Shown one piece after another: positions 35,497 to 48,489 of a stretch of 64,000 bases of DNA; position 1 is the first letter of the stretch, and each line of letters begins with the position of its first letter. The position numbers were made by a program, and so were the translations under genes. The DNA comes from a virus (taxonomy: Duplodnaviria; Heunggongvirae; Uroviricota; Caudoviricetes), in IMG/VR virus record IMGVR_UViG_3300046385_000126, positions 1 to 64,000 of that record. One strand, 5' to 3'. The notes below the pieces were generated by a model that saw only the letters and a program-made list of their open reading frames with translations, had not been told where the DNA came from and made no database searches.

Positions 35497-36687
35497 CTAT
35501 ACGTTGAGCGTAAACAATTTTGTAGTTATCATCTGAAGACCTACCATTCTACCATTAGCATCTACAGTTTTGAATTGAGGGCTAATACCGTCAGACAGAT
35601 CGTTGAGTTTATATATTAGTTTATTGTTTATGTGTTTAAACTCGTCTGATGTATACAGATAGTGAAACCACGGATGGTATATTTTGTTAAAGTTGTCTGG
35701 TTTCGCTACTTGGAACGTATTCTGGTCCCAGTTTGGATAACAGACTGAATTAACCACTTTATCAAACTCAAAAAACATTTCGAGCTTTTTATTATGAGTC
35801 GCAGTCTTCCTTACGTTTAGATCGATCAACCTTTTTAGATGAGGATTGCGTCTTACATAGAATGCAACAGCATGTGCTCTTGCAAGCGTTAGATCAGGAT
35901 AATCAGCAGAGTAGTAAAAGTTTACCCTAGAATCTACTTCTAGTTTATTATGGGAGTGTTGGTTGCCAGCAGCCATAATAGTTAGATCAGGGAAGCAAGT
36001 AGCGAACTTATCTGTGTTTGGATCGTATGTTAGGATCGGCTTGTCGATACCAAAAATATTAGCTACCCGTTTTCCCTTATTTCCATTAGCAATAGCGTTT
36101 TCCGATACGACCTCGCTAAACCCAAAGTTAGCCATTCCAAAGTTATGGTTCTGCTTATACAGCAGATCTTCGGTGATGTTAACTTGCTTTACAGTATCAA
36201 TCCAATCATCAATAACAATCTTTATCTCAGGATGATGTTCTCTTACCCAGTCGAGTTTAGGCTTAATGGAAAAATCCCATTCACTCAACATATTGGTGGC
36301 ACGTCTGTCGTTAATATCTGGTACATACTTGTTAGCATCTACCAAACGTTTGGGCCATCTCACGTAGATTTCATCTAGCTTGATATTGTTCTTTATGAAG
36401 GTTTCGAGAATTGTTGTGCTGTCAACACCACCACTAAAGTTGAGTATCAAGTAATCGTATGTTTCTCGTATCTGCCAAGCCCGAGTCTTGTACATATCTT
36501 CCAAGACGGTGCTCGGATTGTGCTTATACATCTTTAACGATGCATCCCATACCTCATCATAGTAATGGTATGTGACATTAGTCCTGCCCGCTGATGATGC
36601 ATACAACAGCGCTTGCATCTTGCTAGTGAATACCTTAGCTCCACTAGCTGTGTGTGCTTTGTAATAACCCAGCGAGCTGTTTATCAT
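35497..36687 (-). CDS. PP-loop ATP pyrophosphatase family protein (adenine-nucleotide alpha-hydrolase fold)
   Basis: LNFSGGVDSTTILE is an SGGxDS PP-loop motif. Confidence 0.55.
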   Translation of the reverse strand: MINSSLGYYKAHTASGAKVFTSKMQALLYASSAGRTNVTYHYYDEVWDASLKMYKHNPSTVLEDMYKTRAWQIRETYDYLILNFSGGVDSTTILETFIKNNIKLDEIYVRWPKRLVDANKYVPDINDRRATNMLSEWDFSIKPKLDWVREHHPEIKIVIDDWIDTVKQVNITEDLLYKQNHNFGMANFGFSEVVSENAIANGNKGKRVANIFGIDKPILTYDPNTDKFATCFPDLTIMAAGNQHSHNKLEVDSRVNFYYSADYPDLTLARAHAVAFYVRRNPHLKRLIDLNVRKTATHNKKLEMFFEFDKVVNSVCYPNWDQNTFQVAKPDNFNKIYHPWFHYLYTSDEFKHINNKLIYKLNDLSDGISPQFKTVDANGRMVGLQMITTKLFTLNV

Positions 36688-37562
36688 TTCAGCAACCGCT
36701 TGATAATATCTTTTTCTGTTTTCAGTGCGTTAGGTTTTTTAGTGTCAATGCACGACTCATAACCCATGCCAGTAAAGATCTGTGCCATCTGTTCTTCATT
36801 GAGCTTTTTGTCGATGTATGTCTTTAACTTGGTCGATAATGCCGTATTACCTACAAATAGTTGGCGACTTTTGAACCCATGAATATCAACCCCGACATCT
36901 TTGAACGTAGGGACATCAGGATACTTTTTAAGAGGTTGTGACGCTGCTAGGATTCTAAACTTACCTGAGTCGATGAGAGGTGAAACCAGTGTAACACTAT
37001 CCAAATACCACACGATTGTATCGGCAAGAAGAGCATTCATAACATCAGCAGCACCCTTGAATGGAATCTCGATTTGGTTCTTATCACCTCCTGCGATTAG
37101 TGGCGACACCATACTCTGCACCGTACCAGTTCCTGATGTGCCGTATGGGATTGTTCTGGTTGCTGATGCTGAGCGAATATCTTGAAATCGTTTGATCGGG
37201 CTATCTGCTTTCACAATAACAACACTTGGATCGGTAATTAGACACGACAAGAAAATGAAGTCGTTTTCGATATCGTATTTTGCATTGCCAAGTAGTGTAT
37301 TAGTGACGAGTGCTTGACCACTTACCAGTAGCGTCGGTTCACTCTTTTCATTTGCTACAAGAGTTGCTCCAAGAGCTCCGCCAGCTCCTGGTTTGTTCTC
37401 AACCACAAAAGTGTATTCATCGTTGGTTAGATGAGTCTGCAATTGACGTGCTAATTTGTCTGATGTTCCCCCTGCTGTGTATGGAACGACTATCTTAATG
37501 GTTTCTTTTGCGTATGTGGTAAAGCTAGCAGCTAAGAGTAGAATGGTAATTAGTTTTTTCAT
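36684..37562 (-). CDS. periplasmic substrate-binding protein, TctC/Bug-like
   Basis: Signal peptide MKKLITILLLAASFTTYA. IVVPYTAGGTSD...KPGAGGALG resembles tripartite tricarboxylate transporter binding proteins. Confidence 0.5.
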   Translation of the reverse strand: MKKLITILLLAASFTTYAKETIKIVVPYTAGGTSDKLARQLQTHLTNDEYTFVVENKPGAGGALGATLVANEKSEPTLLVSGQALVTNTLLGNAKYDIENDFIFLSCLITDPSVVIVKADSPIKRFQDIRSASATRTIPYGTSGTGTVQSMVSPLIAGGDKNQIEIPFKGAADVMNALLADTIVWYLDSVTLVSPLIDSGKFRILAASQPLKKYPDVPTFKDVGVDIHGFKSRQLFVGNTALSTKLKTYIDKKLNEEQMAQIFTGMGYESCIDTKKPNALKTEKDIIKRLLK

Positions 37563-37564: not shown

Positions 37565-38431
37565 TTAAGGTTTATCAGTTCGAATAAGTTGTATGAACCA
37601 GAAGGTTGGATCGATCTCCCACCACCTACGCCCTCCATAATTTGGATTGCGGCCTTCACCGTGATGGTTGTTATGCCACGCCTCTCCTAGTATTAAAGGA
37701 AAGAGCCACGGCGAATTTATACTATCATCTTTAACTGCATAATTGCGATACCCCATCTGCGGTATATGAGTAACACTTGTTTGCAATAAAAACAAATGCA
37801 AAGTGATTACGGAAGGCAGCAGCAGTAAAAACACCCACAACTGTACACTAACCATTGCCAAAAGTAAATGGGTGATCCATATGATGTATATGTAATATTT
37901 GTGTGCAAACAGCATATCTGGATCTCGTTGCAGATCGATTGTCGATCTAACACTAATGTTTACGTGTTTAAACATCCACGCCATGTAGCTGTGCCAAAAT
38001 CCATCTCTTGGGCTGTGCAAATCTTTTGGAGTATCGGCATGGCGATGGTGATACCCTCGATGTATGGAGCACCATGCAATAGGACTTCCTTGTCCTGCTA
38101 AGACGCCAAAATACAGAGTAATCAGTTTAATATGTCTGCTTACTTTATACCCTCTGTGACAAAATAATCTGTGGTAACCAGCAGCAATACCAATCATCTT
38201 TAGGCAGACATAGCCTATAAGTAATGCAACCCACCACCAAGCGGGAATAGACACCGTAAACAGCGCTATAACAGCGATAACATGGAAAGGCACTATCACC
38301 CCCCATAGTTGAGGTAACTTACGTGTATTTCTGAGTATTTGAGTTACCGATGTTTCCACTGCTTTAAAATGTCTTGATTGCCGTTGTAGATGATGTATTG
38401 CCAGCATGCGTCTTGTTGTTCGCATGGACAT
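37565..38431 (-). CDS. membrane fatty-acid-desaturase / hydroxylase-like di-iron protein
   Basis: Three His boxes (HRLFCH, HHRHADTP, HNNHH) plus multiple TM helices. Confidence 0.55.
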   Translation of the reverse strand: MSMRTTRRMLAIHHLQRQSRHFKAVETSVTQILRNTRKLPQLWGVIVPFHVIAVIALFTVSIPAWWWVALLIGYVCLKMIGIAAGYHRLFCHRGYKVSRHIKLITLYFGVLAGQGSPIAWCSIHRGYHHRHADTPKDLHSPRDGFWHSYMAWMFKHVNISVRSTIDLQRDPDMLFAHKYYIYIIWITHLLLAMVSVQLWVFLLLLPSVITLHLFLLQTSVTHIPQMGYRNYAVKDDSINSPWLFPLILGEAWHNNHHGEGRNPNYGGRRWWEIDPTFWFIQLIRTDKP

Positions 38432-38895
38432 GTCAAATACTTATATGGGTCTTTGGTAAAGTGAATGTTGTGATCATTTTTAAATGAATCGATCATCCAA
38501 TCCTGCCAGTTGCTTGTTTCGCGGCTTATGAAATATAACTCGAAGTCGGTATGTTGCTTGAGCCAGTCTATCTGACTTGCACCAGCTGCACCTACGCCCA
38601 GCGTCACTCGCCGTAAATATTCTTTACGGTCATTGGGCTTCCACAATCTATTGTATATTCGATATGTGTCATCGGGCCAGCAGCTTCGTGCAGATATACT
38701 TGAACAAACAATAGGTTGGTTATCACAATCAAATACGATTGTGCACGCTACACAATCATCCATCATTCTCTTGTTATAGTTTTTCCAAAGTCTGTGTGTT
38801 TTATCCTGGTGCTGCTTTTCGCGAAGACTGTCAAAAAGGGTATCCATTGCTGGATTGGACCCTGGAGTCCATGTTATCGATGTCACTGTTTGCAT
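38344..38895 (-). CDS. hypothetical Cys-rich protein
   Basis: 183 aa. Its 3' end overlaps the desaturase-like gene start. Confidence 0.4.
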   Translation of the reverse strand: MQTVTSITWTPGSNPAMDTLFDSLREKQHQDKTHRLWKNYNKRMMDDCVACTIVFDCDNQPIVCSSISARSCWPDDTYRIYNRLWKPNDRKEYLRRVTLGVGAAGASQIDWLKQHTDFELYFISRETSNWQDWMIDSFKNDHNIHFTKDPYKYLTCPCEQQDACWQYIIYNGNQDILKQWKHR

Positions 38896-39764
38896 AGGTT
38901 ATATTTTTTCATGAAGGCAAAAAAATCTATATCGTAACTACCATTCCATCTTTTGCCCTGCTTATGTAATTCTTGAAAGTAGGGGTGTTTGAAGATAGGT
39001 GATTGCTCGATCTGCTCATAACCATGATACTTTGGTCGCGCAATAAGATTGAAACCACTATGTCTGTTGTATATCTCTACTTTGCTAGAGTTTGAACCTT
39101 GTTTGTGGGGGCGTCTATTACTCGCCAATTCAAACATTACTGGATCTGTAAGCATTGCAGACATCATTTCAGGTCTGTATGTGTTGAAATGTGTAGTACC
39201 GTCTATTCCCTTTTTTTCAAAATATCGATACACAGCAAATTCGTGCTCATCCAGATGTATTACCCATGACAGCGATTGTTGGTCTGGCTTTATGTACATC
39301 TCACCGTCACCACATATGACAGTGCCATCGAGCTTTTCAGCAACAAATGCTGTCAACGCCCGATGATATATTTCAGACTTACATATTTGAGCAACTTCGA
39401 GCATCTTACCACTAGAGACGAAGTGGTCGAAGTCAATGTTAATTACTAAAGGTGTTAGATTTTTTGATCTACAGAAATCAAAAGCATATTTGGTATCGTA
39501 GGTATTATATCCCTGTATCATATTGATAATGACAGGAACTATCGGTATACCAGCGCTGAGAAAAACACTCAATGTGTTTTCACTATCTAAACCACCACTA
39601 TACAATAAGTGGAGCTTGCCGACCTTTAGAGAATTAATTTCCTCTGCAGCCAGCAAGCTCTCTTTGTAATAGTTTTGAAACGTAGTGGGAAGAGGGTTAA
39701 TATGGACAGTAAAATTAGAACCATGACCGCGTGGTTCATAGTAATTGCTCTTTACAAAATCCAT
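38883..39764 (-). CDS. PP-loop ATP pyrophosphatase family protein
   Basis: LLYSGGLDSENTL is an SGGxDS PP-loop. Confidence 0.55.
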   Translation of the reverse strand: MDFVKSNYYEPRGHGSNFTVHINPLPTTFQNYYKESLLAAEEINSLKVGKLHLLYSGGLDSENTLSVFLSAGIPIVPVIINMIQGYNTYDTKYAFDFCRSKNLTPLVINIDFDHFVSSGKMLEVAQICKSEIYHRALTAFVAEKLDGTVICGDGEMYIKPDQQSLSWVIHLDEHEFAVYRYFEKKGIDGTTHFNTYRPEMMSAMLTDPVMFELASNRRPHKQGSNSSKVEIYNRHSGFNLIARPKYHGYEQIEQSPIFKHPYFQELHKQGKRWNGSYDIDFFAFMKKYNLCKQ

Positions 39765-39777: not shown

Positions 39778-40260
39778 TTATGCAGCTAATACTTCCTTCA
39801 AACGATCAGCAGCGTATGATGCAGCAAACGCTCTTGGTTTAACCATTGGGATAACGTTACACGTTCCCTTGATGTATCCAATTGCTTGCTGTACAACACA
39901 GCTTGAACCATACATTTCGTTTGGGTTAATATCTAGGTGAACTTCAACTTCCCGATCTTCCAATACATCTTTCAACTTTTGGAACAAATCAGAAACCTTA
40001 TACACTTCGTTCATCAACCGCATTGAAGGCTTGCTCTTCTTTTGATCGTAGTCAAGTTCGGTTTGCACTTCACCGAAAATCTTACAACCATGACATCCAT
40101 CGATGTGTACAACAACGGCGAGAGTATAGTCAGCATACCATTGGCCATTCAGTTTAAAGCGTACTGAATCAGCGCCAATGTAAATCTTTGTAGATGGTCC
40201 TTGTGCCTCAATGAATTCTTTAACTTCATTGATATCTAACTTTTTCATCATACTCTCCAA
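39778..40260 (-). CDS. hypothetical protein
   Basis: 160 aa. Directly downstream of tRNA-Gly on the minus strand. Confidence 0.45.
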   Translation of the reverse strand: MESMMKKLDINEVKEFIEAQGPSTKIYIGADSVRFKLNGQWYADYTLAVVVHIDGCHGCKIFGEVQTELDYDQKKSKPSMRLMNEVYKVSDLFQKLKDVLEDREVEVHLDINPNEMYGSSCVVQQAIGYIKGTCNVIPMVKPRAFAASYAADRLKEVLAA

Positions 40261-40266
40261 AATATT

Positions 40267-40340
40267 TGGTGCGGGGTAAGGGAATCGAACCCTTAACTAA
40301 ACGTTGGCAACGTCTGATTTTACCGTTAAACTAACCACGC
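40267..40340 (-). tRNA. tRNA-Gly(GCC)
   Basis: Cloverleaf with T-loop GGTTCGATTCC, anticodon loop TTGCCAA and encoded CCA. One acceptor mismatch. Sits immediately 3' of the TROVE/vWA gene. Confidence 0.6.
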
Positions 40341-40372
40341 ATGATGGCAGGGGATACGTCCCCTGCCTTTAC

Positions 40373-41791
40373 TTAGGTCAACGCATAGCGATCGACCATA
40401 ACTGCCTTAAGCATGATGCCTTGTGGAGTGAATTGTTCCGTGTTGGAAGACAAGACAGCTTTCACAACTGCTGGGCTAAACCCAGACACAAGCGCCACAC
40501 CGGACTCGTTTGCCTTTACAGGTACGTTGTCCTTAGCGTTCAGGTTCCAGAACACAATGGCAGGAACCTTGTAGCCAGCTTCTGCAAACTTACGCTTGAT
40601 CATCTGCATTGCAGAGTCATCGTACGTTGCGCACTGGTTGAATTGCATGTCTGACAGGATCAGCAACATTTCTGGCATCTCTGCTTGAGGAACGTTTGCA
40701 TCTACAGCAGTCTTCAAGATCTTTGCCATAGCCTTGTTCAGGTTAGTGGACATATTCCAAGAAGACTTAGACATTTGCTGGACCTTCTGAACAATGTTGC
40801 CCTTCAAGTGCAACAGCTCTGGATTGTCAGAGAAAGTCAGGAACGTGTCCTTGAACTTACCCTTGTTCTTATCTGCCAGGTACAAACCAAGCGAGATAGC
40901 AACATCCATACAGGTCACAGAACCAGAACCACCAGCTGGGCAGCTCATAGAGCCGGAAACATCAACCAAAGGCAGAATGTTTGCATCCCCAACGTAGTTA
41001 GGCAGAGCTTCCCATTGCTTTGCAATGTGATCCAACTCGGTCTTACCGTAGTTGTTAGACATATATCCGTTGCACATGCCTTTCAGCACGTCGTATGGAT
41101 ACACAGCCCCTGCGTTAACCTTGACGCCTGCTTCGCCCTTAACGAGCTTAGCAACGTATTCAGCAAACTTCGTACCGTGACGAGTAAACGCCTTCTTGTA
41201 ACGAGCAGATGCTACGGATGGCACATGGTTGTAGTTAATATCATCCCACTTACCAGCACACATTTGCTGTTCGACCACATTCGTCAGATTAACCAACGAC
41301 TTACGGTAGAACTTTGGCGACATGCCGAAGAAGGTACGAATCTCTGCGGCCAGAGGGCCTTGACGAGGTGTCCACTTTGCAGCCAAGCCATTCTTCTCAC
41401 GAAGAGCATCACCTAACATGGTGAAAGCCTTAGCCTTCAGATCCTTATCTTCAAAAACAAAGATGTCATCCCAGCGACCGATTTCTGGCGTCTTGGCCAG
41501 CAATGCTGCTGCAGCATCCTTATCGTGCTTTTCCAGATACTTTAGAATCTGACGGTACAACGCACGTTCACCAGATCCACCACGTGCGTCACGTGCCCAT
41601 TGAGCAATACGCAATGCAACGTCTTTGTCTTCGACGTATGCGGCTACAAAGTCCTTGGTAATATCCTTACCACGGCTTGCACCGATCTTGAAAAACAAGT
41701 CTACACATGCATCTGCAGTGGACTTGCGAGCCTTCATACCGTTAGTGGTACGAGCTTCTTGGTTCTTAACAGCTTCTACGAATGTTGACAT
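40373..41791 (-). CDS. TROVE-like + von Willebrand A protein (Ro60/Rsr-related, DUF2828-like)
   Basis: The N-terminus TTNGMKARKST...LFFKIGASRG resembles the start of a TROVE domain. A MIDAS motif VDVSGSMS lies near the C-terminal third. Confidence 0.55.
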   Translation of the reverse strand: MSTFVEAVKNQEARTTNGMKARKSTADACVDLFFKIGASRGKDITKDFVAAYVEDKDVALRIAQWARDARGGSGERALYRQILKYLEKHDKDAAAALLAKTPEIGRWDDIFVFEDKDLKAKAFTMLGDALREKNGLAAKWTPRQGPLAAEIRTFFGMSPKFYRKSLVNLTNVVEQQMCAGKWDDINYNHVPSVASARYKKAFTRHGTKFAEYVAKLVKGEAGVKVNAGAVYPYDVLKGMCNGYMSNNYGKTELDHIAKQWEALPNYVGDANILPLVDVSGSMSCPAGGSGSVTCMDVAISLGLYLADKNKGKFKDTFLTFSDNPELLHLKGNIVQKVQQMSKSSWNMSTNLNKAMAKILKTAVDANVPQAEMPEMLLILSDMQFNQCATYDDSAMQMIKRKFAEAGYKVPAIVFWNLNAKDNVPVKANESGVALVSGFSPAVVKAVLSSNTEQFTPQGIMLKAVMVDRYALT

Positions 41792-41821
41792 AATGAACTC
41801 CTTTTCAAATCAACAGGTTAA

Positions 41822-41995
41822 ACTTTTTGCTAAGCGGGTGTGCTACCATTACACTACTAGTCGGAATCGAACCGATCCACCTGCGTGGGTTTGCATTAAA
41901 GAGATTGCGGAACTTAACCTAAATTCAGCAGATTGGTTATCATTGAGGCTATCACGGCACTCAGCCAGATTCGGGCTATCTTTATGGTGATTTTT
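41822..41995 (-). ncRNA. candidate tRNA-like / Y-RNA-like noncoding RNA upstream of the TROVE/vWA gene
   Basis: On the minus strand, a T-arm-like GGTGGATCGGTTCGATTCCGACTAG is followed by a D-arm-like GTAGTGTAATGGTAGCACAC. The order is noncanonical, there is no ORF, and promoter-like and terminator-like hairpins are absent. Confidence 0.25.
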
Positions 41996-42223
41996 GTACT
42001 TGCTGTACCCAATCTAAAATCAACAGAGTAGTTTCCTTCTTTTTGTTTTACATGAGAACACGAAACTCATGTCTACCATACGTGTTAACGTATACAACCT
42101 TCAAAGCCCATACAGGCTCCAGTTGCATACCACCTTGGTAAGCCGTTACTGGAATTGCTCCCAGTTAGTTTTGTTTGCTGAACCTACTCTAAAAACTCTC
42201 GATGACTCAATTATCTGTGCTTT

Positions 42224-42748
42224 TCAGATTAGAGTCAACTGTTTAAAAATATCTTCAAGCAAAATAGGTCTAAAATCTGTTTGCTCTACGCAAGCACAGA
42301 AGTACCAAGGATCAGGGTTTACACCCCACTTGTCTTTGACCACATTTGCGTGCAAGTGACCGTGCACGTTAGCCTTGAAGCGGCCTTTGCTTTCCGTGTG
42401 AATGGGAATGTGACTAAAGATGACGTTGTTCATCACATGGTAAGCTCTAATGTCCCGAAAATGTTCTGTATATTCTTCGAGACGGAAAATATCGTGGTTA
42501 CCTTTGATCAGGACCTTGTCGCCATTCAACCTGCTAAGCGTTTTAAGTGCCTTTCGGTTAATAACAACATCACCCAAGTGATAAACCTTGTCGCCAGGAC
42601 GAACAGTTTCGTTCCAACGCTTAATCATTTCTTCATCCATTTCTTCTGGCGTATCCCAGGGACGAAGCTTTGTTCCATCATCACGAAGGAACTTACACAC
42701 ACCGGCGTGGCCAAAGTGTGTGTCGCTAACTACGAATGTCGCAGCCAT
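42224..42748 (-). CDS. calcineurin-like metallophosphoesterase
   Basis: DTHFGH, GD and GNHD motifs. Confidence 0.7.
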   Translation of the reverse strand: MAATFVVSDTHFGHAGVCKFLRDDGTKLRPWDTPEEMDEEMIKRWNETVRPGDKVYHLGDVVINRKALKTLSRLNGDKVLIKGNHDIFRLEEYTEHFRDIRAYHVMNNVIFSHIPIHTESKGRFKANVHGHLHANVVKDKWGVNPDPWYFCACVEQTDFRPILLEDIFKQLTLI

Positions 42749-42755
42749 AATAATC

Positions 42756-42947
42756 TCACTTTTTAATTAGGGGATTTTCTGTATTGTCGTACAGACTGAG
42801 TTTTTCGTTTTCTCTTACCATTGCAGTAAGAGCCTCTTCACGCTTTTTCTTTTCTAGTCGTGATTCGCCAAAGATGCGTGTGTGACCTTCATCATATGCT
42901 TTGATATTTGTTGGTCGTTGGCTATCACCTTTTCCACCATCACTCAT
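42756..42947 (-). CDS. hypothetical protein
   Basis: 63 aa, basic. Confidence 0.3.
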   Translation of the reverse strand: MSDGGKGDSQRPTNIKAYDEGHTRIFGESRLEKKKREEALTAMVRENEKLSLYDNTENPLIKK

Positions 42948-43037
42948 AATAATCTCCTGGTGGTACTAGAAGGTAACGATCCTTCCTGTCAGGCTTATGA
43001 GACCCGTGCATATCCATCTATGCTATAGTACCGTTAT

Positions 43038-43111
43038 TGGATGCGGGTGACGGATTCGAACCGCCGATGCTGCGAGCTTATGAGACTGCAGTGGTGACCT
43101 CCCTACCCGCG
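43038..43111 (-). tRNA. tRNA-like with CAU anticodon motif and initiator-like acceptor (C1·A72)
   Basis: Acceptor CGCGGGT/ACCCGCA as in bacterial tRNA-fMet. T-loop TTCGAAT and CTCATAA loop present. The D and anticodon arms do not fold canonically. Confidence 0.4.
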
Positions 43112-43118
43112 TAAATTT

Positions 43119-43192
43119 TGGTGCCCCTTGACAGAATCGAACTGCCGTAACCTGATTACAAAACAGGTGTAATACCATTATACTAAAAGGGC
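43119..43192 (-). tRNA. tRNA-Thr(UGU)
   Basis: GCCCTTT/AAGGGGC acceptor, D-loop AATGGT, anticodon loop TTTGTAA, T-loop TTCGATT, CCA encoded. Confidence 0.65.
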
Positions 43193-43201
43193 AAAATTGG
43201 C

Positions 43202-43273
43202 TGGCCAACCTGGGCTCGAACCAGGGACATTTTGATTAACAGTCAAACGCTCTACCAACTGAGCTATAGGCCA
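43202..43273 (-). tRNA. tRNA-Asn(GUU)
   Basis: D-arm GCTCAGTTGGTAGAGC, anticodon arm TTTGA-CTGTTAA-TCAAA, T-arm CCTGGTTCGAGCCCAGG. Confidence 0.7.
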
Positions 43274-43311
43274 ATATCTTGTATTATATAGTCGACCCGT
43301 TAAAAGTCAAC

Positions 43312-43386
43312 TGGTGGATGGTACTGGGATCGAACCAGTGACCGCTTCCATGTCAAGGAAGTATTCTACCGCTGAAATAACCATCC
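43312..43386 (-). tRNA. tRNA-Val(GAC)
   Basis: Acceptor GGATGGT/ACCATCC perfect. Anticodon loop TTGACAT, T-loop TTCGATC, CCA encoded. Confidence 0.7.
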
Positions 43387-43390
43387 ATTT

Positions 43391-43465
43391 TGGTGCCCAC
43401 GAAAGGACTCGAACCTTCACTCCGTCGATTATGAGTCGACCGCTTCACCTTTAAGCTACCTGGGC
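43391..43465 (-). tRNA. tRNA with CAU anticodon (elongator Met or Ile2/lysidine type)
   Basis: D-arm GCTTAAAGGTGAAGC, anticodon arm GTCGA-CTCATAA-TCGAC, T-loop TTCGAGT. Confidence 0.65.
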
Positions 43466-43470
43466 ATCTC

Positions 43471-43548
43471 TGGTGCGGCCAATGGGATTCGAACCCATAC
43501 TGTACAGATTTTAAGTCTGTTGCCTCCTACCTATTGCGCTATGGCCGC
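43471..43548 (-). tRNA. tRNA-Leu(UAA), short-variable-arm type with atypical D-arm
   Basis: Acceptor GCGGCCA/TGGCCGC perfect, A73. Anticodon arm ACAGA-CTTAAAA-TCTGT. Only a 5-nt variable loop. D region is GCGCAATAGGTAGGAGGC. Confidence 0.55.
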
Positions 43549-43555
43549 AAAACCA

Positions 43556-43650
43556 TATTAAAACACACTGCTCACTATCTTTATGTACACTATTACATAG
43601 TGGGTTGCATATTGTTCGTGTGTGCCATGCAACTAGCGCCTCACAGTGTG
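43556..43650. other. long hairpin (17-bp stem, ~60-nt loop) in an inter-tRNA spacer
   Basis: ATATTAAAACACACTG pairs with CAGTGTGTTTTAATAT. Confidence 0.5.
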
Positions 43651-43658
43651 TTTTAATA

Positions 43659-43735
43659 TGGCGCGCCAAGAGGGATTCGAACCCCCGACATGCGGTGTAG
43701 AAGACCGCTGTTCTATCCAGCTGAACTATAGGCGC
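43659..43735 (-). tRNA. tRNA-Arg(UCU)
   Basis: D-arm GTTCAGCTGGATAGAAC, anticodon arm GCGGT-CTTCTAC-ACCGC, T-loop TTCGAAT. Confidence 0.7.
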
Positions 43736-43738
43736 AAA

Positions 43739-43813
43739 TTGGTGCTCTCGTCAAGAATCGAACTTGAGTTACATCCGTACCAAGGATGTGTAATGCCATT
43801 ATACTACAAGAGC
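43739..43813 (-). tRNA. tRNA-Thr(GGU)
   Basis: Acceptor GCTCTTG/CGAGAGC, anticodon arm CATCC-TTGGTAC-GGATG, T-loop TTCGATT. Confidence 0.7.
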
Positions 43814-43821
43814 ATTTATAT

Positions 43822-43899
43822 TGGTACCCACAGCGAGATTCGAACTCGCACTGTACAGATTTTGAATCTGTTGCCTCCTACCTATTGCGCTATGTGGGC
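43822..43899 (-). tRNA. tRNA-Leu(CAA), short-variable-arm type with atypical D-arm
   Basis: Same body as 43471-43548 (TAGCGCAATAGGTAGGAGGCA). Anticodon arm ACAGA-TTCAAAA-TCTGT. A73. Confidence 0.55.
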
Positions 43900-43925
43900 A
43901 TTATTAAACAGGATACGTTTTTTAC

Positions 43926-44075
43926 TCTGCTCTACCAACTGAGCTACCCCTCCACTAAACTTATTCATCGAACTCCTCAGACGGTTACTCTAAGTCATAA
44001 CGCTCTTCAAATCGTAGACCAATACGACAGGAATAAGTTTAGTGGAGGGGGATGGAATTGAACCACCGACACGAG
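43926..44075 (-). ncRNA. circularly permuted tRNA-like unit (T-arm + 3' acceptor, 64-nt insert, 5' acceptor + D-arm)
   Basis: On the minus strand GGTGGTTCAATTCCATC then CCCCTCCA, a perfect 20-bp inverted repeat (43947-43966 / 44031-44050), then GGAGGGGTAGCTCAGTTGGTAGAGC. No anticodon arm in canonical position. Confidence 0.3.
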
Positions 44076-44117
44076 GCTTTCAATGCATTTTATGTTGCTG
44101 AATGTATCCTAAAACTT

Positions 44118-44207
44118 TGGCGGTGCGACTGAGACTCGAACTCAGAACCCAGCTTTCGCTAAGCGACAGATTAGCAATCTGCTCTAATACCATTATAGGA
44201 CCGCACC
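44118..44207 (-). tRNA. tRNA-Ser(GCU), type II
   Basis: Acceptor GGTGCGG/TCGCACC, anticodon arm GCAGA-TTGCTAA-TCTGT, long variable hairpin, T-loop TTCGAGT. Confidence 0.7.
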
Positions 44208-44214
44208 AATATTC

Positions 44215-44304
44215 TGGCGGTGTGTGGAGGAGTCGAACCCCGGCCAGCATTCGCCAACCGTCCGCTTTCCAGGCGGATGCTAGAACCATCTAGCTGCACA
44301 CACC
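44215..44304 (-). tRNA. tRNA-Ser(GGA), type II
   Basis: Anticodon arm TCCGC-CTGGAAA-GCGGA, long variable arm, T-loop TTCGACT. Confidence 0.65.
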
Positions 44305-44329
44305 AATAACAGGTTCAATTTTTTACGTG

Positions 44330-44400
44330 CTACCACTACACCAACGCGAAGACCAACTCGCGTCCGGGATTCGAACCCGGCCCCTCTTTTTTACAGAAAG
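44330..44400 (-). ncRNA. permuted tRNA-like unit (T-arm, acceptor-like hairpin, D-arm)
   Basis: Minus strand reads CCGGGTTCGAATCCCGG, ACGCGAG-TTGGTC-TTCGCGT, TGGTGTAGTGGTAGCAC. No CCA. Confidence 0.3.
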
Positions 44401-44439
44401 ATTATTTTTGATTGCTGAAATGAACCTAATGGTCTAATT

Positions 44440-44520
44440 TAACAGGATGCTGTGTTATCGCCGGGAATCGAACCCCTATTACAAACACGGTCCCCAACTG
44501 GACGGCCTGGCAAAAGTGGC
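44440..44520 (-). ncRNA. degenerate tRNA-like element (D-arm and T-arm present, no anticodon arm)
   Basis: GTCCAGTTGGGGAC D-arm-like and GGGGTTCGATTCCC T-arm-like segments sit only ~14 nt apart. Confidence 0.25.
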
Positions 44521-44540
44521 GCCATAAGTTGTTTGCTGTA

Positions 44541-44600
44541 TTCATCCTAAAAATGGCGGGACATTTAAAATTGCAGAATAAATTCTTTACAGAATTATAT
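44541..44600 (-). ncRNA. tRNA-acceptor-like minihelix with CCA
   Basis: GGGACA...TGTCCC + GCCA ends. Internal AATTCT-GTAA-AGAATT GNRA-capped hairpin. Confidence 0.2.
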
Positions 44601-44615
44601 TTTTGTCCCATAACT

Positions 44616-44707
44616 TGGCGGAAAGCAGAGGAGTCGAACCCCATCCCCGTTAGGAGAACCTGGTTTTCAAGGCCAGTCGCAGGACCAACCCCGCTGCATT
44701 ACTTTCC
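44616..44707 (-). tRNA. tRNA-Ser(UGA), type II
   Basis: Acceptor GGAAAGT/GCTTTCC, anticodon loop CTTGAAA, long variable arm, T-loop TTCGACT, CCA. Confidence 0.65.
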
Positions 44708-44715
44708 ATTATTCT

Positions 44716-44979
44716 TTAGACATCCTCATATGTTGCAAGGATGTGTTGCTCTTCAATGATGAAGAACGGAACTGCACCGAACTTTGAAGGTTGGGCTTTG
44801 CTCCAATCGATATACACATAGTCTCCGATCTTAACATCAGCTACATCTGGTCCTGTGGCAATCACTTTACCACGTGGGCTTTCTGATTCGTGCCCTTCAA
44901 CAATAATACCAGATGCAGTAGCATTTGCTGGTTTAATCCGAGCAACTGCGACTTTATTTCCAATAGGAACTAGTGCCAT
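44716..44979 (-). CDS. GroES-like co-chaperonin (gp31-type)
   Basis: LVPIGNKVAVARIKP...SGIIVEGHESESPRGKVIATG...VKIGDYVYID follows the GroES/Cpn10 pattern. Embedded in the tRNA array. Confidence 0.7.
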   Translation of the reverse strand: MALVPIGNKVAVARIKPANATASGIIVEGHESESPRGKVIATGPDVADVKIGDYVYIDWSKAQPSKFGAVPFFIIEEQHILATYEDV

Positions 44980-44995
44980 AACAAACCTTTAAAAT

Positions 44996-45069
44996 TGGCA
45001 TCCCGGGAGGGACTCGAACCCCCACAAACAGTTTTGGAGACTGCTGTGCTGCCATTACACTACCGAGAT
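44996..45069 (-). tRNA. tRNA-Trp(CCA)
   Basis: D-arm GTGTAATGGCAGCAC, anticodon arm GCAGT-CTCCAAA-ACTGT, T-arm GGGGGTTCGAGTCCCTC, G73. Confidence 0.7.
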
Positions 45070-45076
45070 ATAAAAA

Positions 45077-45152
45077 TGGTGCCAAGGGACGGGATCGAAC
45101 CGCCGACACACGGATTTTCAATCCGCTGCTCTACCATCTGAGCTACCGAGGC
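45077..45152 (-). tRNA. tRNA-Phe(GAA)
   Basis: D-arm GCTCAGATGGTAGAGC, anticodon arm GCGGA-TTGAAAA-TCCGT, variable GTGTC. Acceptor has two mismatches. Confidence 0.65.
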
Positions 45153-45155
45153 ATT

Positions 45156-45230
45156 TGGTACATCGTGACGGGATCGAACCGCCGACCTACTCCGTGTAAA
45201 GGAGGCACTCTACCGCTGAGTTAACGATGC
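45156..45230 (-). tRNA. tRNA-Val(UAC)
   Basis: Anticodon arm CCTCC-TTTACAC-GGAGT. T-arm GGCGGTTCGATCCCGTC. Confidence 0.7.
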
Positions 45231-45859
45231 ATATTCTGAAAATAATCTTTGTAATTATCCGGCATTTCGTAGTCGGATTTCAACATAAGATTAGTAACAT
45301 TATCATACTGCAGATTACCGTTCCACGGTGCACCTGCAGCAATTGTTAGTTTGAAGTCATCTGTGGTATTATTCATACCGTGAAGCCAACTACCATCCAT
45401 TATGAATGGTCCATCAACTTCTGGGACATTGACATCGCCCTTTGTTGTTTTAAAGTACAGCGTGCTTGTTTTACCATGCACAACTATACGGAATTTGTGT
45501 TGCATTGTCCCCATCTTATGAGGATCACAATCGATATGTTCTTCGTTTGCAAAGTTTGGTTTGGTTATCAAGGCCATTACACGTGTTTTCGTTCCCATCC
45601 AAGGAAACACAACACTATCAAACCAGACTTTAATACATTCTGGAGTGTATGGCAACCATAAGAAATCACCAGATCTGCTATTCGATGATCCTGTGGCTCC
45701 AGGTTTTGCTTCTTTTGTCATCAACGGTAGCATAGATGTAGCTCTGTATGTATCCCACCACCAATATGATTCATCAACACAAAGAAGCTGTTCAGTAGCC
45801 AGTTCTTTATTGAGTGCTGGTAAATTAACACTAGCAAACAACATATCATCTATTGTCAT
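45221..45859 (-). CDS. hypothetical protein encoded inside the tRNA array
   Basis: 212-aa ORF from MTIDDMLF. Trp-rich. Confidence 0.45.
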   Translation of the reverse strand: MTIDDMLFASVNLPALNKELATEQLLCVDESYWWWDTYRATSMLPLMTKEAKPGATGSSNSRSGDFLWLPYTPECIKVWFDSVVFPWMGTKTRVMALITKPNFANEEHIDCDPHKMGTMQHKFRIVVHGKTSTLYFKTTKGDVNVPEVDGPFIMDGSWLHGMNNTTDDFKLTIAAGAPWNGNLQYDNVTNLMLKSDYEMPDNYKDYFQNMHR

Positions 45860-45872
45860 AATAACTCCGTTA

Positions 45873-45946
45873 TGGGGTGAAAGGGGGAATCGAACCCTCG
45901 TCAACTGTTTCACAGACAGCTATGTTACCACTACACTACTAACACC
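45873..45946 (-). tRNA. tRNA-His(GUG) with encoded G-1
   Basis: Anticodon arm GCTGT-CTGTGAA-ACAGT. An extra 5' G pairs with C73, as expected for tRNA-His. Confidence 0.65.
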
Positions 45947-46072
45947 ATATAGAAACACTCTGCCAGTGCTTGAACCTGAGGTAGCCCTACTCTTCCTGGC
46001 AACGTTCACAGCGTAGTCGACTTTGCTGTTACTTGATGAACTCCAGTGTAGCTACTCAAAGTGTTTTTATAT

Positions 46073-46147
46073 GGTAGGGGCACAGAGAATCGAACTCTGA
46101 TTACATGGTTAAAAGCCACGTACTTTAGCCGTTAAGTTATACCCCCT
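46073..46147 (-). tRNA. tRNA-Lys(UUU)
   Basis: Anticodon arm CGTGG-CTTTTAA-CCATG. T-arm CAGAGTTCGATTCTCTG. Confidence 0.7.
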
Positions 46148-46421
46148 CAAGTGCATACCCAGAACCTTCGCGGTTCAGGCTGCGGCGCATTTGTTTATTA
46201 GTCTTGCGGTGACTACCAGCTTTTCTGAATAATGCCAAAGCAACGAACTGGTTACGTTCCTTGGCGATCTGTTTTCGCTTCATCTCGTATTTCCTTATCT
46301 GCTTCTTTTAAGCGTTGTTCCCACTTGCAGTTGATCATCATACAACAATAGCATGACAACAACTTCGTTTTTTTGCCGTTACATTTGACGTTACCGGCTC
46401 TTGCTCCATATACAGGTGACC

Positions 46422-46646
46422 TCATACACGAACCCTTTTTGGTGCGCCAATGCGGCTTGCTTTATTCCAATCGTAGGCAACTCCGTCTGGACACTTGCCA
46501 TCTTTAACACTATCGACACCAAACTTACCTACTACTTCAAAGTCTGGGCCTTGAATGGTGACAAATACATCTAGTTCTTTAGCATATGACATTGCTGTGT
46601 CCAAGCTAGGAAACTCAATCTTTGTTTCATGCAATATCACATTGTA
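46422..46646 (-). CDS. hypothetical protein
   Basis: ~74-aa ORF from MYNVILHETKIEF. The longer ORF-track version overlaps tRNAs and was trimmed. Confidence 0.35.
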   Translation of the reverse strand, partial: YNVILHETKIEFPSLDTAMSYAKELDVFVTIQGPDFEVVGKFGVDSVKDGKCPDGVAYDWNKASRIGAPKRVRV

Positions 46647-46666
46647 CATATTATATCTTTTATTTT

Positions 46667-46741
46667 TGGCAGAGGGAATGGGGATCGAACCCATCTTCCT
46701 GCAGTCAAAGTGCAGTGTCATCACCAGATGACAATCCCCCA
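46667..46741 (-). tRNA. tRNA-Gln-like (UUG), U1·U72 mismatch
   Basis: D-arm GTCATCTGGTGATGAC, anticodon arm CTGCA-CTTTGAC-TGCAG, G73. Confidence 0.55.
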
Positions 46742-46747
46742 ACAATT

Positions 46748-46823
46748 TGGCACCCCGTAATGGACTCGAACCACTGAATGTCGGAATCAAAATCCGATGC
46801 CTTACCAACTTGGCGAACGAGGT
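46748..46823 (-). tRNA. tRNA-Gln(UUG)
   Basis: D-arm GCCAAGTTGGTAAGGC and anticodon loop TTTTGAT closely match the bacterial tRNA-Gln pattern. Confidence 0.7.
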
Positions 46824-46834
46824 ATAAACAACAG

Positions 46835-46940
46835 GATGCGTTTTTCGAAGGCTATGCGCCTTTGCTCGACCACTGAGCGATCTACGCTTGAAGCGTGGAG
46901 TTGGATTCGAACCAACGTGTCGTTAGACATTGCTGTATGC
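46835..46940 (-). ncRNA. circularly permuted tRNA-like unit (T-arm, 3' acceptor, loop, 5' acceptor, D-arm, CAU-containing hairpin)
   Basis: Minus strand reads GTTGGTTCGAATCCAAC TCCACGC TTCAA GCGTAGA TC GCTCAGTGGTCGAGC A AAGG-CGCATAG-CCTT. The acceptor strands are contiguous and closed by a 5-nt loop. Confidence 0.3.
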
Positions 46941-46950
46941 ATCCTAAAAC

Positions 46951-47025
46951 TGGTGGGTCGTCGCAGATTCAAACTGCGTTCTCGCGGGTTAAGAGCCCGG
47001 ACTTCATCATCAAAGTTTACAACCC
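46951..47025 (-). tRNA. tRNA-Lys(CUU), tentative
   Basis: Acceptor GGGTTGT/ACGACCC, anticodon loop CTCTTAA with a 4-bp stem, T-loop TTTGAAT, CCA. Confidence 0.5.
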
Positions 47026-47029
47026 ATAT

Positions 47030-47105
47030 TGGTGGAGGACCAGGGTATCGAACCCTTGTAGTCATGATCCTTGCAAAAGAACACCGCCGCCCTCGGCTCC
47101 CCCCA
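47030..47105 (-). tRNA. tRNA-like, anticodon uncertain (possibly UGC)
   Basis: T-arm and CCA are clear. The 5' half, with its G-rich start, does not fold cleanly. Confidence 0.35.
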
Positions 47106-47185
47106 TAAAATAACAGAGTAGTTATGTCGAACATGACAAATTAAAAGTTTGGTGTTCTAATATATTGCTGAACCTACTCTAAAAC

Positions 47186-47260
47186 TGGTACTCGATAGCG
47201 GAGTTGAACCGCTCTTCTCAGGTTGAAAACCTGATGTCCTAACCGATAGACGAATCGAGC
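47186..47260 (-). tRNA. tRNA-Glu(UUC)
   Basis: Anticodon arm TCAGG-TTTTCAA-CCTGA. T-arm AGCGGTTCAACTCCGCT. Confidence 0.7.
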
Positions 47261-47265
47261 ATAAC

Positions 47266-47344
47266 TGGCTCCGGATGTGGGGATCGAACCCACCTAATCA
47301 TTGATTAACAGTCAAGTCCTTGCACCATGCTTGGATTTTCCGGA
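47266..47344 (-). tRNA. tRNA with GUU anticodon (Asn-like, second copy, enlarged D-loop)
   Basis: Anticodon loop CTGTTAA. T-arm GTGGGTTCGATCCCCAC. 79 nt. Confidence 0.45.
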
Positions 47345-47349
47345 ATAAA

Positions 47350-47745
47350 ATTGGCCCCGTTTTTTTGTTGCTCTTACTGAGGTGGACGGGAGTTCCTCAG
47401 GTCAGTACGTACATACGCATTAAATTTGTAAGTTGTAGCGTCCCTCATATCGCTACCATTTTCCCTTGATATAAAGCCGGCAGGGTCAAGATACGTCACT
47501 TGGGTCTTGTCCAGTTTGTCCACCTTTAGAACTAGCACCTTTAGAGTGCTGGGATTCGAACCCAAAACCTTTTGCTGCACAATACCTTCGAAGTATATTG
47601 ATACAACGTGACTCCACTTGCTGACACTTACAAAACTGATTTGTAGCGGGCTCCACACATTGATTGAAGTTGCGCTTCGATGTTTAACGCCATTTAAGGT
47701 TCCGCAACACCCCTTACCCTAGCTCCAGGCTAAGACTACAAAACT
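47350..47745 (-). ncRNA. structured noncoding region of unknown function (no convincing ORF)
   Basis: Contains a T-arm-like GGGTTCGAATCCCAG (47545-47565) without a matching acceptor, plus hairpins such as CTGAGG...CCTCAG. The 94-aa ORF on the minus strand has no start context. Confidence 0.2.
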
Positions 47746-47828
47746 TGGTGCAGCCAGAGGACTCGAACCTCTGTGGCAACTAGTATACGATGCACAGGGC
47801 ATCTGCCTCCTCCATTACTGCATATAGG
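47746..47828 (-). tRNA. tRNA-like (83 nt), anticodon uncertain (CUG or other)
   Basis: T-arm AGAGGTTCGAGTCCTCT, CCA, acceptor GCAGTAA/TGGCTGC. The internal region folds ambiguously. Confidence 0.35.
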
Positions 47829-48082
47829 TTTTTGAGAGGCCAACTATCTTTCTCAAGGACTCGTCGGTTTGTCTCGAATGAGAGAGTTTAAACAACCTTA
47901 CACAATTCTACTGGTGTGTCATGCTCAAGGATAGGGCACTAGAATGTAAGGGACTCATCTCACCGTCTATCTCAAAATTTACGTGTCGTTACGGGTTTTT
48001 ACCGTACCTGAACCTTGTTCCACCGCTCGTTTAAAGACTTACATGGCGATCCCGTGCATTCTCATTACACTATGACAAAACT

Positions 48083-48158
48083 TGGTGCTCACGTCAGGCC
48101 TCGAACCTGATCCTCCGCGTTACGAGGGCGGCATACCACCAACTAATACTTCGCGAGC
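48083..48158 (-). tRNA. tRNA-Thr(CGU), tentative
   Basis: Acceptor GCTCGCG/CGTGAGC, anticodon loop CTCGTAA, T-arm TCAGGTTCGAGGCCTGA. Confidence 0.5.
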
Positions 48159-48232
48159 TAATACAACAGGTTAGTTTTTGCGGTTTCAATTACAAGTTGA
48201 ATGCTTTATGCTTGCTGAACCTAACCTAAAAC

Positions 48233-48308
48233 TGGTCTGAGTGGGGAATTCCGAGATCCCAACCTCCAGGTTCCAAACCCGGCCGTCTGCCTTTGACAAT
48301 ACACTCAG
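48233..48308 (-). tRNA. tRNA-Pro-like (UGG) with noncanonical T-loop
   Basis: Perfect acceptor CTGAGTG/CACTCAG. Anticodon arm CCGGG-TTTGGAA-CCTGG. T-loop TCTCGGAAT lacks TTC. Confidence 0.45.
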
Positions 48309-48315
48309 ATAAAAA

Positions 48316-48391
48316 TGGTCTCCGTACGAGGATTTGAACCTCGACCACATGACCCCAAATCACGGACGCTACCAGATTACGCCATACGGAG
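48316..48391 (-). tRNA. tRNA-Pro(UGG)
   Basis: Perfect acceptor, anticodon arm CGTGA-TTTGGGG-TCATG (G37), T-arm CGAGGTTCAAATCCTCG. Confidence 0.7.
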
Positions 48392-48400
48392 ATAAAAAAA

Positions 48401-48484
48401 TGGTGGAGACGGATGGATTTGAACCACCGTGCTGTTAAGAACAGATTTACAGTCTGCCGCAATCGACCTCTCTGCCACGTCTCC
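48401..48484 (-). tRNA. tRNA-Tyr(GUA), type II
   Basis: Anticodon arm GCAGA-CTGTAAA-TCTGT matches the bacterial Tyr pattern. 84 nt, perfect acceptor. Confidence 0.7.
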
Positions 48485-48489
48485 AAAAC

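Follow-up and report, generated by a model that had tools for sequence, protein, structure and literature searches.

The DNA stretch analysed here (the window: 64,000 nucleotides, positions 1 to 64,000 of the IMG/VR virus record IMGVR_UViG_3300046385_000126, Caudoviricetes) comes from a large T4-like phage, with gp32 at 52316-53251 and genes of nicotinamide adenine dinucleotide (NAD) salvage, and carries on its minus strand a gene for a 472-amino-acid protein of the DUF2828/DUF7788 type together with eleven copies of a modular, structured RNA unit. In our reading, the locus probably encodes a ribonucleoprotein particle (RNP) of the Ro60/Y RNA kind that is assembled from non-canonical parts and carries exchangeable, tRNA-mimicking cargo; a role in conflicts over tRNA is the most likely one because the locus belongs to a tRNA island, has neighbours of the RNA repair type and encodes a protein one homolog of which has an anti-defence phenotype. 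This reading is carried by the anatomy of the units, the covariation of their stems, their strand-specific linkage to the gene throughout the family, the similarity in fold to Ro60 and the repair-type neighbourhood. The pairing of a protein with Y RNAs is of a known kind, of which the DUF2828 protein and the CAGCAA-bearing units are previously undescribed members.

An earlier, sequence-only reading of this DNA had singled out a segment of about 170 nt, free of open reading frames (ORFs), upstream of the gene and a single tRNA-like element within it. The segment exists and is non-coding, with an actual length of 432 nt (41792-42223); it consists of three tandem structured units (units 9 to 11, Table 1), of which unit 11 contains the element first noticed. 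Eight further units are dispersed among the tRNAs of the island, 2-8 kb from the DUF2828 gene, so that the one element, although real, turns into three upstream and eleven in the tRNA island, with several types of cargo. The module was recognised by setting the upstream sequences of related loci side by side: global folding of the 432-nt leader gives a z-score of -0.38 relative to shuffles, and the structure emerged only from comparison with relatives. A unit reads uuUUAG, a 7-bp covarying stem, nU(U/A)CAGCAA, a cargo of 32-180 nt, the other strand of the stem and GUUG; the stem strands have the form 5' AGrnNNN and 3' NNNnyCU, and the terminal stem of 6-7 bp unites the 5' and 3' ends of the unit. 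All 11 occurrences of the 5' signature TTAGNNNNNNTNCNGCAA in the window fall within 41905-49446 and are on the minus strand, compared with 0.12 expected from shuffles, and the window units share CAGCAA apart from unit 11, where the sequence is CCGCAA. Pairing of UCAGCA with a 3' UGUUGA in a pseudoknot was considered and rejected, as the 3' flank varies by clade (GUUG, GG, AGUUU, GUnnnn) and the loop lengths are sterically implausible.

The sequence of the stem varies from copy to copy while its pairing is kept, as the strands of units 9, 10 and 11 illustrate (Table 1). Pairing was assessed in a manner that does not select for it, by seeking, up to 600 nt downstream of each CAGCAA, the complement of the 7-mer that precedes the motif. 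On the gene strand of all loci, a perfect 7-nt complement is present for 170 of the 341 distinct CAGCAA sites, compared with 22-30 in three controls, and GTT or GCT follows 118 of the 170 paired sites; on the opposite strand, 25 of 213 CAGCAA sites have a complement, which is the control level, and the number followed by GTT or GCT is 0. When 80 short units are aligned, six of the seven pairs of the stem have double-sided changes (121 cells), and a covariance model built from these 80 units (CM R1) recovers the short window units at 50-71 bits. The sequence n-U-(U/A)-CAGCAA is found in 149 unique units from related loci, with A before CAGCAA in 90 of them.

Between the constant ends, the cargo differs in kind: three of the window cargoes are YrlA-like tRNA mimics, others look like anticodon stem-loops, and units 9 and 10 hold other conserved folds. 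In unit 11 the T-arm (GGTTCGATTCC; CGG-TTCGATT-CCG) is directly followed by a D-arm-like sequence (GTGTAATGGTAGCAC; GTGT-AATGGTA-GCAC), with no acceptor-like hairpin; this YrlA-style order had been read correctly from the sequence, and the mimic is conserved on the gene strand in relatives. Homologs of unit 11 in the related loci L008, L190, L120, L124 and L142 have compensatory changes, the T and D arms being nearly invariant, and three of them (L120, L124, L142) keep the acceptor-like hairpin; unit 11 is a variant that has lost this middle hairpin. The conserved 64-nt cargo of unit 10 (..CCCGAAUCUGGCUG..UGAUAGC..AAUGAUA) has homologs in L001, L002 and L086, and in the consensus fold of unit 9, drawn from eight sequences, 11 of 33 pairs show compensatory change; the cargoes of both units have such changes among relatives, and conserved secondary structure, which the sequence-only reading had proposed to look for, is thereby present in the homologs of all three upstream units. 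A 26-amino-acid ORF in unit 9 (ATGCAACTGGAG...) was discarded, since in L010/L063 the frame is shifted relative to the window, with differences that compensate each other within hairpins. Hairpins resembling an anticodon arm, defined by a stem of at least 4 bp and a 7-nt loop with U33 and R37, occur in 117 of 281 unique short cargoes and in 15 when these are shuffled. Seventy-five of the 117 loops read C-U-NNN-A-A, a 5-bp A/U-rich stem being typical, and the commonest 'anticodons' are UGU, UUU, GGA, UCU, GUU, GCA and UGA. The cargo hairpin of unit 1, tttcaCUGUUAAtgaaa, is the same as the anticodon arm of the phage's own tRNA-Asn, tttgaCUGUUAAtcaaa, except for one flipped base pair.

The association of units with DUF2828 genes, counted in the flanks around the loci, extends well beyond the window. 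A DNA-level search of GenBank phages yielded no close relative of the locus; IMG/VR contains at least 192 contigs with a protein 70-82% identical, and the length of many of these contigs is 160-350 kb. The DUF2828 gene of 80 related loci almost always follows an ORF-less gap of 400-850 nt and stands at the end of a same-strand tRNA array. Nearly all IMG/VR loci with enough upstream sequence have at least one unit just upstream on the same strand, and over all loci 198 units are on the gene strand versus 23 on the other; the distance from the end of the last unit to the start codon is mostly 13-20 nt or about 75 nt, and in the window the three upstream units lie 19-400 nt from the gene, likewise on its strand. 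In 13 divergent DUF2828 loci (27-44% identity), among them Brachyspira chromosomes, mycobacteriophage Lumos, Listeria P100, Campylobacter F374, Bacillus Thrax2 and the Felix O1-like UAB_Phi87, units with CAGCAA and a covarying stem of 6-7 bp flank the gene in all 13, the opposite-strand control giving 0-1 per locus. UAB_Phi87, whose homolog is 39% identical to the window protein, has four non-tRNA units between its tRNAs, and in the Lumos, Felix-like and Lentisphaeria loci units are also found downstream of the gene. A stands directly before CAGCAA in the majority of the units examined from Listeria, Bacillus, Brachyspira and Lumos.

A scan of IMG/VR with the RNA motif alone gave 157 matches, 118 of which are complete units, nearly all in tRNA-rich loci (up to 38 tRNAs per 14 kb); the incomplete matches, in tRNA-free loci, look like chance. 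These results bear on the best of the alternatives, which is that the units are independent small RNAs of the tRNA island, decoys or sponges made of tRNA parts that the DUF2828 protein does not bind, both being co-inherited in a single RNA-conflict toolkit. Eight of the 11 window units are packed among tRNAs at the distance given above, as this explanation would have it, and 79 of 119 unit-bearing IMG/VR loci have no DUF2828 gene in the DNA fetched. However, the fetched stretches are short, and several of the gene-less loci belong to contigs that bear the gene (L118 is on the same contig as L006, and L099 on that of L001). Units also adjoin the gene where tRNAs are few or lacking: in the Brachyspira chromosomes and in Lumos they stand beside it with no tRNA array nearby, and in Listeria P100, with few or no tRNAs nearby, three units follow a promoter. 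Moreover, the constant part of the stem changes from clade to clade along with the protein, being AGGAU in lake phages, AGACC in the Felix-like ones and GGAC in Lumos, while CAGCAA remains unchanged. Taking both sides together, we regard unbound, merely co-inherited RNAs as an unlikely explanation.

The position of the array units invites a second alternative, namely that they are cis-acting punctuation of tRNA transcripts (processing, folding-insulator or stability elements for RNase P, E or Z), the three upstream copies being the tail of the operon. Array units are situated 1-7 nt from the adjacent tRNAs, often directly after an encoded CCA (CCA-GUUUU-AGG...), and tandem units are repeatedly joined by an A/U-rich sequence of the form GUUGAUUUUAG, which would suit such elements. 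Against this, the scaffold is also present beside DUF2828 genes that lack a tRNA array, elaborate and conserved tRNA-mimicking cargoes would be superfluous for punctuation, and the majority of the window's tRNA junctions are free of units; we consider this explanation improbable, somewhat more so than the preceding one. A shade less probable again is a purely regulatory leader, in which the protein or a tRNA-related signal would control translation or stability of the DUF2828 mRNA through the upstream units: the regular distance of the last unit from the start codon and the promoter-like site before the array agree with it, but it leaves the eight units among the tRNAs, the downstream units of the Lumos, Felix-like and Lentisphaeria loci and the diversity of cargo unexplained. 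A leader role is compatible with the proposed RNP as an additional function. An origin from decayed tRNA genes, or from repeats at the DNA level (for example miniature mobile elements whose ends are inverted), might be suggested by T-arm and D-arm sequences that resemble tRNA fragments in a region rich in tRNA genes, but is very improbable in view of the strictly strand-specific orientation, the asymmetric, non-palindromic conserved motif, the stems that covary while the flanking motif is fixed, the conservation of the T-before-D order and of non-tRNA cargoes across phyla, and the lack of target-site duplications or of terminal inverted repeats beyond the 7-bp stem.

The protein matches the Pfam families DUF2828 (PF11443; E 9e-25, 87.8 bits, cutoff 29) and DUF7788 (PF25043; E 5e-49, 167.1 bits, cutoff 27.1). 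The residues D277, S279, S281, T349 and D381 of its MIDAS (metal ion-dependent adhesion site; DxSxS...T...D) are invariant in 39 homologs. The best match of its predicted fold is Ro60, with a helical repeat domain followed by vWA as in solved Ro60 structures, a likeness revealed only by fold comparison, the sequence profile having failed against the PDB. The corresponding family, PHROG 850, is annotated 'RNA-binding protein', and mycobacteriophage homologs have been named 'Ro-like RNA binding protein' by SEA-PHAGES annotators. DUF2828 is a large family, with 6208 clusters at 50% identity (E<=1e-3), and is present in 710 cultured phage genomes, including Felix O1-like phages, Listeria P100, mycobacteriophages and Campylobacter phages; according to BFVD, members of the fold family also occur in protist giant viruses (Pithovirus, Marseillevirus, CroV, ChoanoV1 and Bodo saltans virus). 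The minus-strand ORF with the VDVSGSMS motif that the sequence-only reading had reported is present, and of the Ro60/Rsr or DUF2828 architecture ascribed to it the Ro60-like fold, the vWA domain with its MIDAS and DUF2828 are retained, membership in TROVE/Rsr being lost: the protein is Ro60-like in its predicted fold, yet by sequence belongs to DUF2828/DUF7788.

Ro60 proteins with Y RNAs are already known from phages, as exemplified by phiLo Ro60 with Yrl1/Yrl2 (PMC12135203), and from bacteria as Rsr (PMC4201824). Like them, the locus described here combines a predicted helical-plus-vWA fold and a MIDAS site with small RNAs encoded beside the gene on the same strand and, as with RtcB in P100, with RNA-repair genes in the vicinity; like Y RNAs, the units are closed by a terminal stem between the 5' and 3' ends, with a conserved 5'-side motif and an effector module that varies. 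In contrast to Ro60/Rsr, the protein has neither a TROVE nor a Ro60-vWA sequence match, the unit motif is (U/A)CAGCAA instead of the Ro60-binding GGUCCGA or GNCGAA, and the units are many per genome, of several cargo classes and spread through the tRNA array. YrlA RNAs have the circularly permuted order T-arm, acceptor-like stem-loop, D-arm, with GNCGAAN0-1G near the 5' end (PMC4201824). Units 5, 7 and 8 share with YrlA (RF02553) the succession of T-arm, acceptor-like hairpin and D-arm within a terminal stem, units of mycobacteriophages and Bacillus phages are arranged in this way too, and, as for YrlA, the three upstream units of the window, like those of relatives, are encoded within about 4 kb of a Ro-like gene on its strand. 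The Rfam YrlA model aligns with unit 5 (46830-46945) over model positions 1-114 at 25.1 bits (E 0.02-0.045) and with units of relatives at 30-49 bits; these alignments are full length, but at 25-49 bits they stay below the gathering score of 69, and the 149 unique units have n-U-(U/A)-CAGCAA at the position of the GNCGAA that they lack. The Y RNA and YrlA models of Rfam, which the sequence-only reading had named as a check, give no Infernal match at threshold, and the YrlA model has none in 41780-42230 even at E<=10. At gathering thresholds only tRNAs and the transfer-messenger RNA (tmRNA) are found in the window, no Rfam family covering the units, and relaxed Rfam scans return only sub-threshold YrlA and Class I matches. 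The 2014 survey of Y RNAs covered only TROVE-annotated genomes, 22 phages among them (PMC4201824), and the DUF2828 phages fell outside it because of this restriction.

The Class I matches point to a eukaryotic parallel. Class I RNAs of Dictyostelium (RF01414), which have been reported to be unique to dictyostelids (PMC7919456), are, like the short units, about 60 nt long, with a covarying stem, of 6 bp, that joins the ends, a variable A/U-rich interior and a 3' end in ..CUG; their conserved unpaired motif, immediately 3' of the 5' strand, ends in ACAGCAA and is shared with the units in part. Unit 1 (49390-49443) reaches 40.1 bits with the Rfam model Dicty_Class_I_RNA, compared with a gathering score of 41.5 (E 3e-5), whereas the other units score 18.8-35.3 bits, the weak match of unit 7 being the 18.8. 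The Class I motif (..CUUACAGCAA) shares CAGCAA with the window units other than 11, and the preceding A with units 5, 6 and 10; its first 3-4 Dictyostelium positions are not conserved in the units. Class I RNAs differ further in being eukaryotic, with a DUSE promoter element, whereas the units are of phage or bacterial DNA, with sigma-70-like promoters or in the context of a tRNA operon; their known binder is the RRM protein Rnp1A (PMC7919456), and the phage units also exist as long forms with tRNA-like cargo. Literature on DUF2828, on Ro-like RNA binding and on Class I RNA or ACAGCAA in connection with phages contained no description of the units, the library being incomplete and some journals lying outside it.

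A functional clue comes from the Felix O1-like phage Bas63, in which the Ro60-like gp130 counters the Ppl defence, as established by deletion and complementation in a 2024 PhageMaP preprint (PMC11482910). The gene for gp130 is directly upstream of a stretch of tRNAs, some of which the preprint authors speculate to be Y RNAs (PMC11482910). UAB_Phi87 has its DUF2828 gene in the same position relative to its tRNAs; unlike in the Bas63 proposal, the candidate RNA partners described here are distinct non-tRNA units between the tRNAs.

Several points weigh against the RNP that we propose. The protein has no match to TROVE (Pfam PF05731), which the sequence-only reading had expected, at E<=0.1; vWA_Ro60 (PF25045) stays below its curated cutoff, at 15.6 bits versus 27.7 (E 0.016); and a profile of the 39 homologs retrieves no Ro60 chain from the PDB at E<=10. 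The model from which the fold similarity derives is of moderate confidence, with a predicted local distance difference test score (pLDDT) of 69 and a predicted template modelling score (pTM) of 0.55. The recognition mode of Ro60 is not simply transferable, because the conserved RNA motif differs. The array units could have a function in the processing of the tRNA operon and none connected with the protein. The 100% pairing in alignment A2 of short units arises by construction, the units having been chosen for pairing, and the term 'anticodon-like' describes only the shape and sequence of a loop. To our knowledge, Ppl is not known to target tRNA, and that Bas63 gp130 is the ortholog we infer from its description and from the gene order in UAB_Phi87.

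With these points taken into account, the proposed RNP would work as follows. Its protein part would be the DUF2828/DUF7788 protein, with a predicted Ro60-like helical domain and a MIDAS-bearing vWA domain, and its RNA part a set of discrete modular small RNAs, each with a terminal stem, an unpaired (U/A)(U/A)CAGCAA after the 5' strand and an exchangeable cargo. Three units, preceded by a sigma-70-like promoter, would make up the leader of the transcript that encodes the protein, and the eight array units would be freed by RNase P and the 3'-end processing that matures tRNAs, release by these enzymes being suggested because the units lie so close to the tRNAs. The constant scaffold of stem and motif would be recognised by the protein, as in Ro60/Y RNA, while the cargo would set the contacts of the particle. 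Most cargoes seem to imitate parts of tRNA, either the T/D-loop elbow with an acceptor-like hairpin or the anticodon stem-loop. The particle may serve as a tRNA-like decoy or tether for host enzymes that bind tRNA, for instance anticodon nucleases or other defence effectors; alternatively, it may recruit repair enzymes to damaged tRNAs.

Table 1. Positions of the units, the DUF2828/DUF7788 gene and other features of the locus in the window. Stems are given as 5' strand/3' strand; bit scores are those of CM R1 unless another model is named.
Feature	Position	Strand	Remarks
Unit 1	49387-49444	-	stem AGAATCC/GGATTCT; cargo hairpin tttcaCUGUUAAtgaaa
Unit 2	48578-48641	-	stem AGGATCC/GGATCCT; hairpin UUUCAC-UUUUGGC-UGUGAAA; 62.9 bits, Rfam Class I 23.7 bits
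Unit 3	48164-48227	-	stem AGGTTAG/CTAACCT; 5-bp stem with loop CUUGUAA (anticodon-loop-like, UGU); 71.2 bits
Unit 4	47111-47180	-	stem AGAGTAG/CTACTCT; loop CUUUUAA (anticodon-loop-like, UUU); 49.7 bits
Unit 5	46829-46945	-	stem AGGATGC/GCATCCT; cargo of T-arm, acceptor-like hairpin, D-arm and one extra hairpin
Unit 6	44440-44548	-	stem AGGATGA/GCATCCT (6 of 7 pairs); motif ATACAGCAA; cargo of D-arm-like and T-arm-like hairpins; 18 bits
Unit 7	44307-44427	-	stem AGGTTCA/TGAACCT; cargo of a hairpin plus T-arm, acceptor-like hairpin, D-arm
Unit 8	43906-44110	-	stem AGGATAC/GTATCCT; between tRNA-Ser and tRNA-Leu; cargo of T-arm, long acceptor-like hairpin (~100 nt), D-arm (TAGCTCAGTTGGTAGAGCA)
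Unit 9	42021-42190	-	stem AGAGTAG/CTACTCT; motif GTTCAGCAA; 144-nt structured cargo with GGAGCCUGUAUGGGCUUUGAAGG
Unit 10	41926-42015	-	stem AGATTGG/CCAATCT; motif GTACAGCAA; 32.7 bits
Unit 11 (element of the sequence-only reading)	41811-41920	-	stem AGGTTAA/TTAACCT; motif GTTCCGCAA; ends 19 nt before the start codon
Ro60-like DUF2828/DUF7788 protein	40373-41791	-	472 amino acids; MIDAS motif VDVSGSMS at residues 276-283
Sigma-70-like promoter	42210-42238	-	TTGACT-17-GATAAT; just upstream of unit 9; a match to the consensus alone
Metallophosphoesterase	42224-42748	-	Metallophos_2, E 7e-7; PHROG 547, E 5e-49
PF04308 RNase H-like protein	39778-40260	-	occasional neighbour, 15 of 107 loci
Ordinary tRNA-Gly(GCC)	40267-40340	-	ARAGORN; Rfam tRNA 57.4 bits, gathering score 29; CCA end encoded
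Permuted tmRNA	50316-50728	-	two-piece, beta-proteobacterial type; tag peptide ANDEKFALAA; upstream end of the tRNA island
DSP/PTP-type phosphatase	23918-24412	+	window copy, 16 kb from the DUF2828 gene

Sequences resembling the promoter and similarly placed are present in L001, L002, L006, L014, L063, Listeria P100 and Bacillus Thrax2. The metallophosphoesterase gene that the sequence-only reading had placed upstream is indeed there and is a recurrent same-strand neighbour: among 107 related loci, 45 have a homolog within 3 kb, or 46 when a second query is used. A DSP-type phosphatase is encoded within 3 kb in 53 of the 107 DUF2828 loci and an AAA_33 P-loop kinase in 45; no AAA_33 kinase was found in the window. 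In Listeria P100 the ligase RtcB is encoded 1.2 kb downstream of the DUF2828 gene, a parallel to rsr-yrlBA-rtcBA, an operon of bacteria that is responsive to damaged tRNAs (PMC7790460). This set of neighbours resembles enzymes of RNA end healing and sealing. About 650 nt upstream of its three units and DUF2828 gene, P100 also has a large RNA resembling ROOL (L229 968-1519; 86 bits, E 5e-16, gathering score 99.1).

The tRNA island, on the minus strand, comprises 31 tRNAs by ARAGORN (40267-49980). Its last gene is the tRNA-Gly(GCC) that had been regarded as a possible Y-like RNA; it is a genuine and ordinary tRNA of the array, tied to the Y-like system only as a neighbour transcribed along with it. 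A perfect 9-bp GC-rich hairpin, GGCAGGGGA-cgta-TCCCCTGCC (40346-40367), separates this tRNA from the stop codon of the DUF2828 gene; as it has no T-run after it on the minus strand, a part in processing or stability is likelier for it than one in termination. Rfam tRNA-Sec matches at 44218-44305 (-) and 44620-44707 (-), of 50.9 bits (above threshold) and 36.7 bits, look like long-arm tRNA-Ser(GGA) and tRNA-Ser(UGA) because their anticodon loops are CUGGAAA and CUUGAAA; both genes were missed by ARAGORN. At 47747-47822 (-), ARAGORN calls a tRNA to which it assigns no identity, with a four-base anticodon (atac), which could be of the frameshift-suppressor type or a miscall. Among relatives, ARAGORN reports just upstream of the DUF2828 gene a tRNA-SeC(tca) in L016 and a tRNA-Pyl(cta) in L058, possible stop-codon suppressors. 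A Cpn10/GroES-like ORF (44716-44979, -; Pfam E 7e-9) is embedded in the island between tRNA-Trp and a tRNA-Ser-like gene. Two genes downstream of the DUF2828 gene, a 293-amino-acid ORF (38883-39764, -) has a SGGLDS motif and by eye resembles a PP-loop ATPase, with no match in Pfam or PHROG. Further on, a TctC/Bug-family solute-binding protein (36684-37562, -; Pfam E 8e-24) adjoins a desaturase-like ORF (37565-38431, -) with histidine-box motifs of a membrane desaturase recognised by eye and no Pfam match; the two are unusual cargo for a phage.

A broader conjecture, which we hold to be possible though rather doubtful, is that DUF2828 proteins and RNAs with a stem plus ACAGCAA form one ancient RNP family parallel to Ro60/Y RNA, whose range would take in phages from many bacterial phyla as well as some bacterial chromosomes, protist giant viruses and eukaryotes. 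The Class I RNAs of Dictyostelium would then be its eukaryotic members, with a DUF2828 partner, and the phage scaffold would be a programmable carrier of anticodon-arm and tRNA-elbow decoys against host defences that target tRNA. If the protein and the units do act together, RNA partners would be assigned to a very large protein family of unknown function, and a class of unannotated small RNAs in phage tRNA islands would be identified. The locus also suggests a concrete, testable route by which phages may handle attacks on tRNA, one homolog already having an anti-defence phenotype, and it would provide an unexpected lead on the function and origin of the Dictyostelium Class I RNAs.

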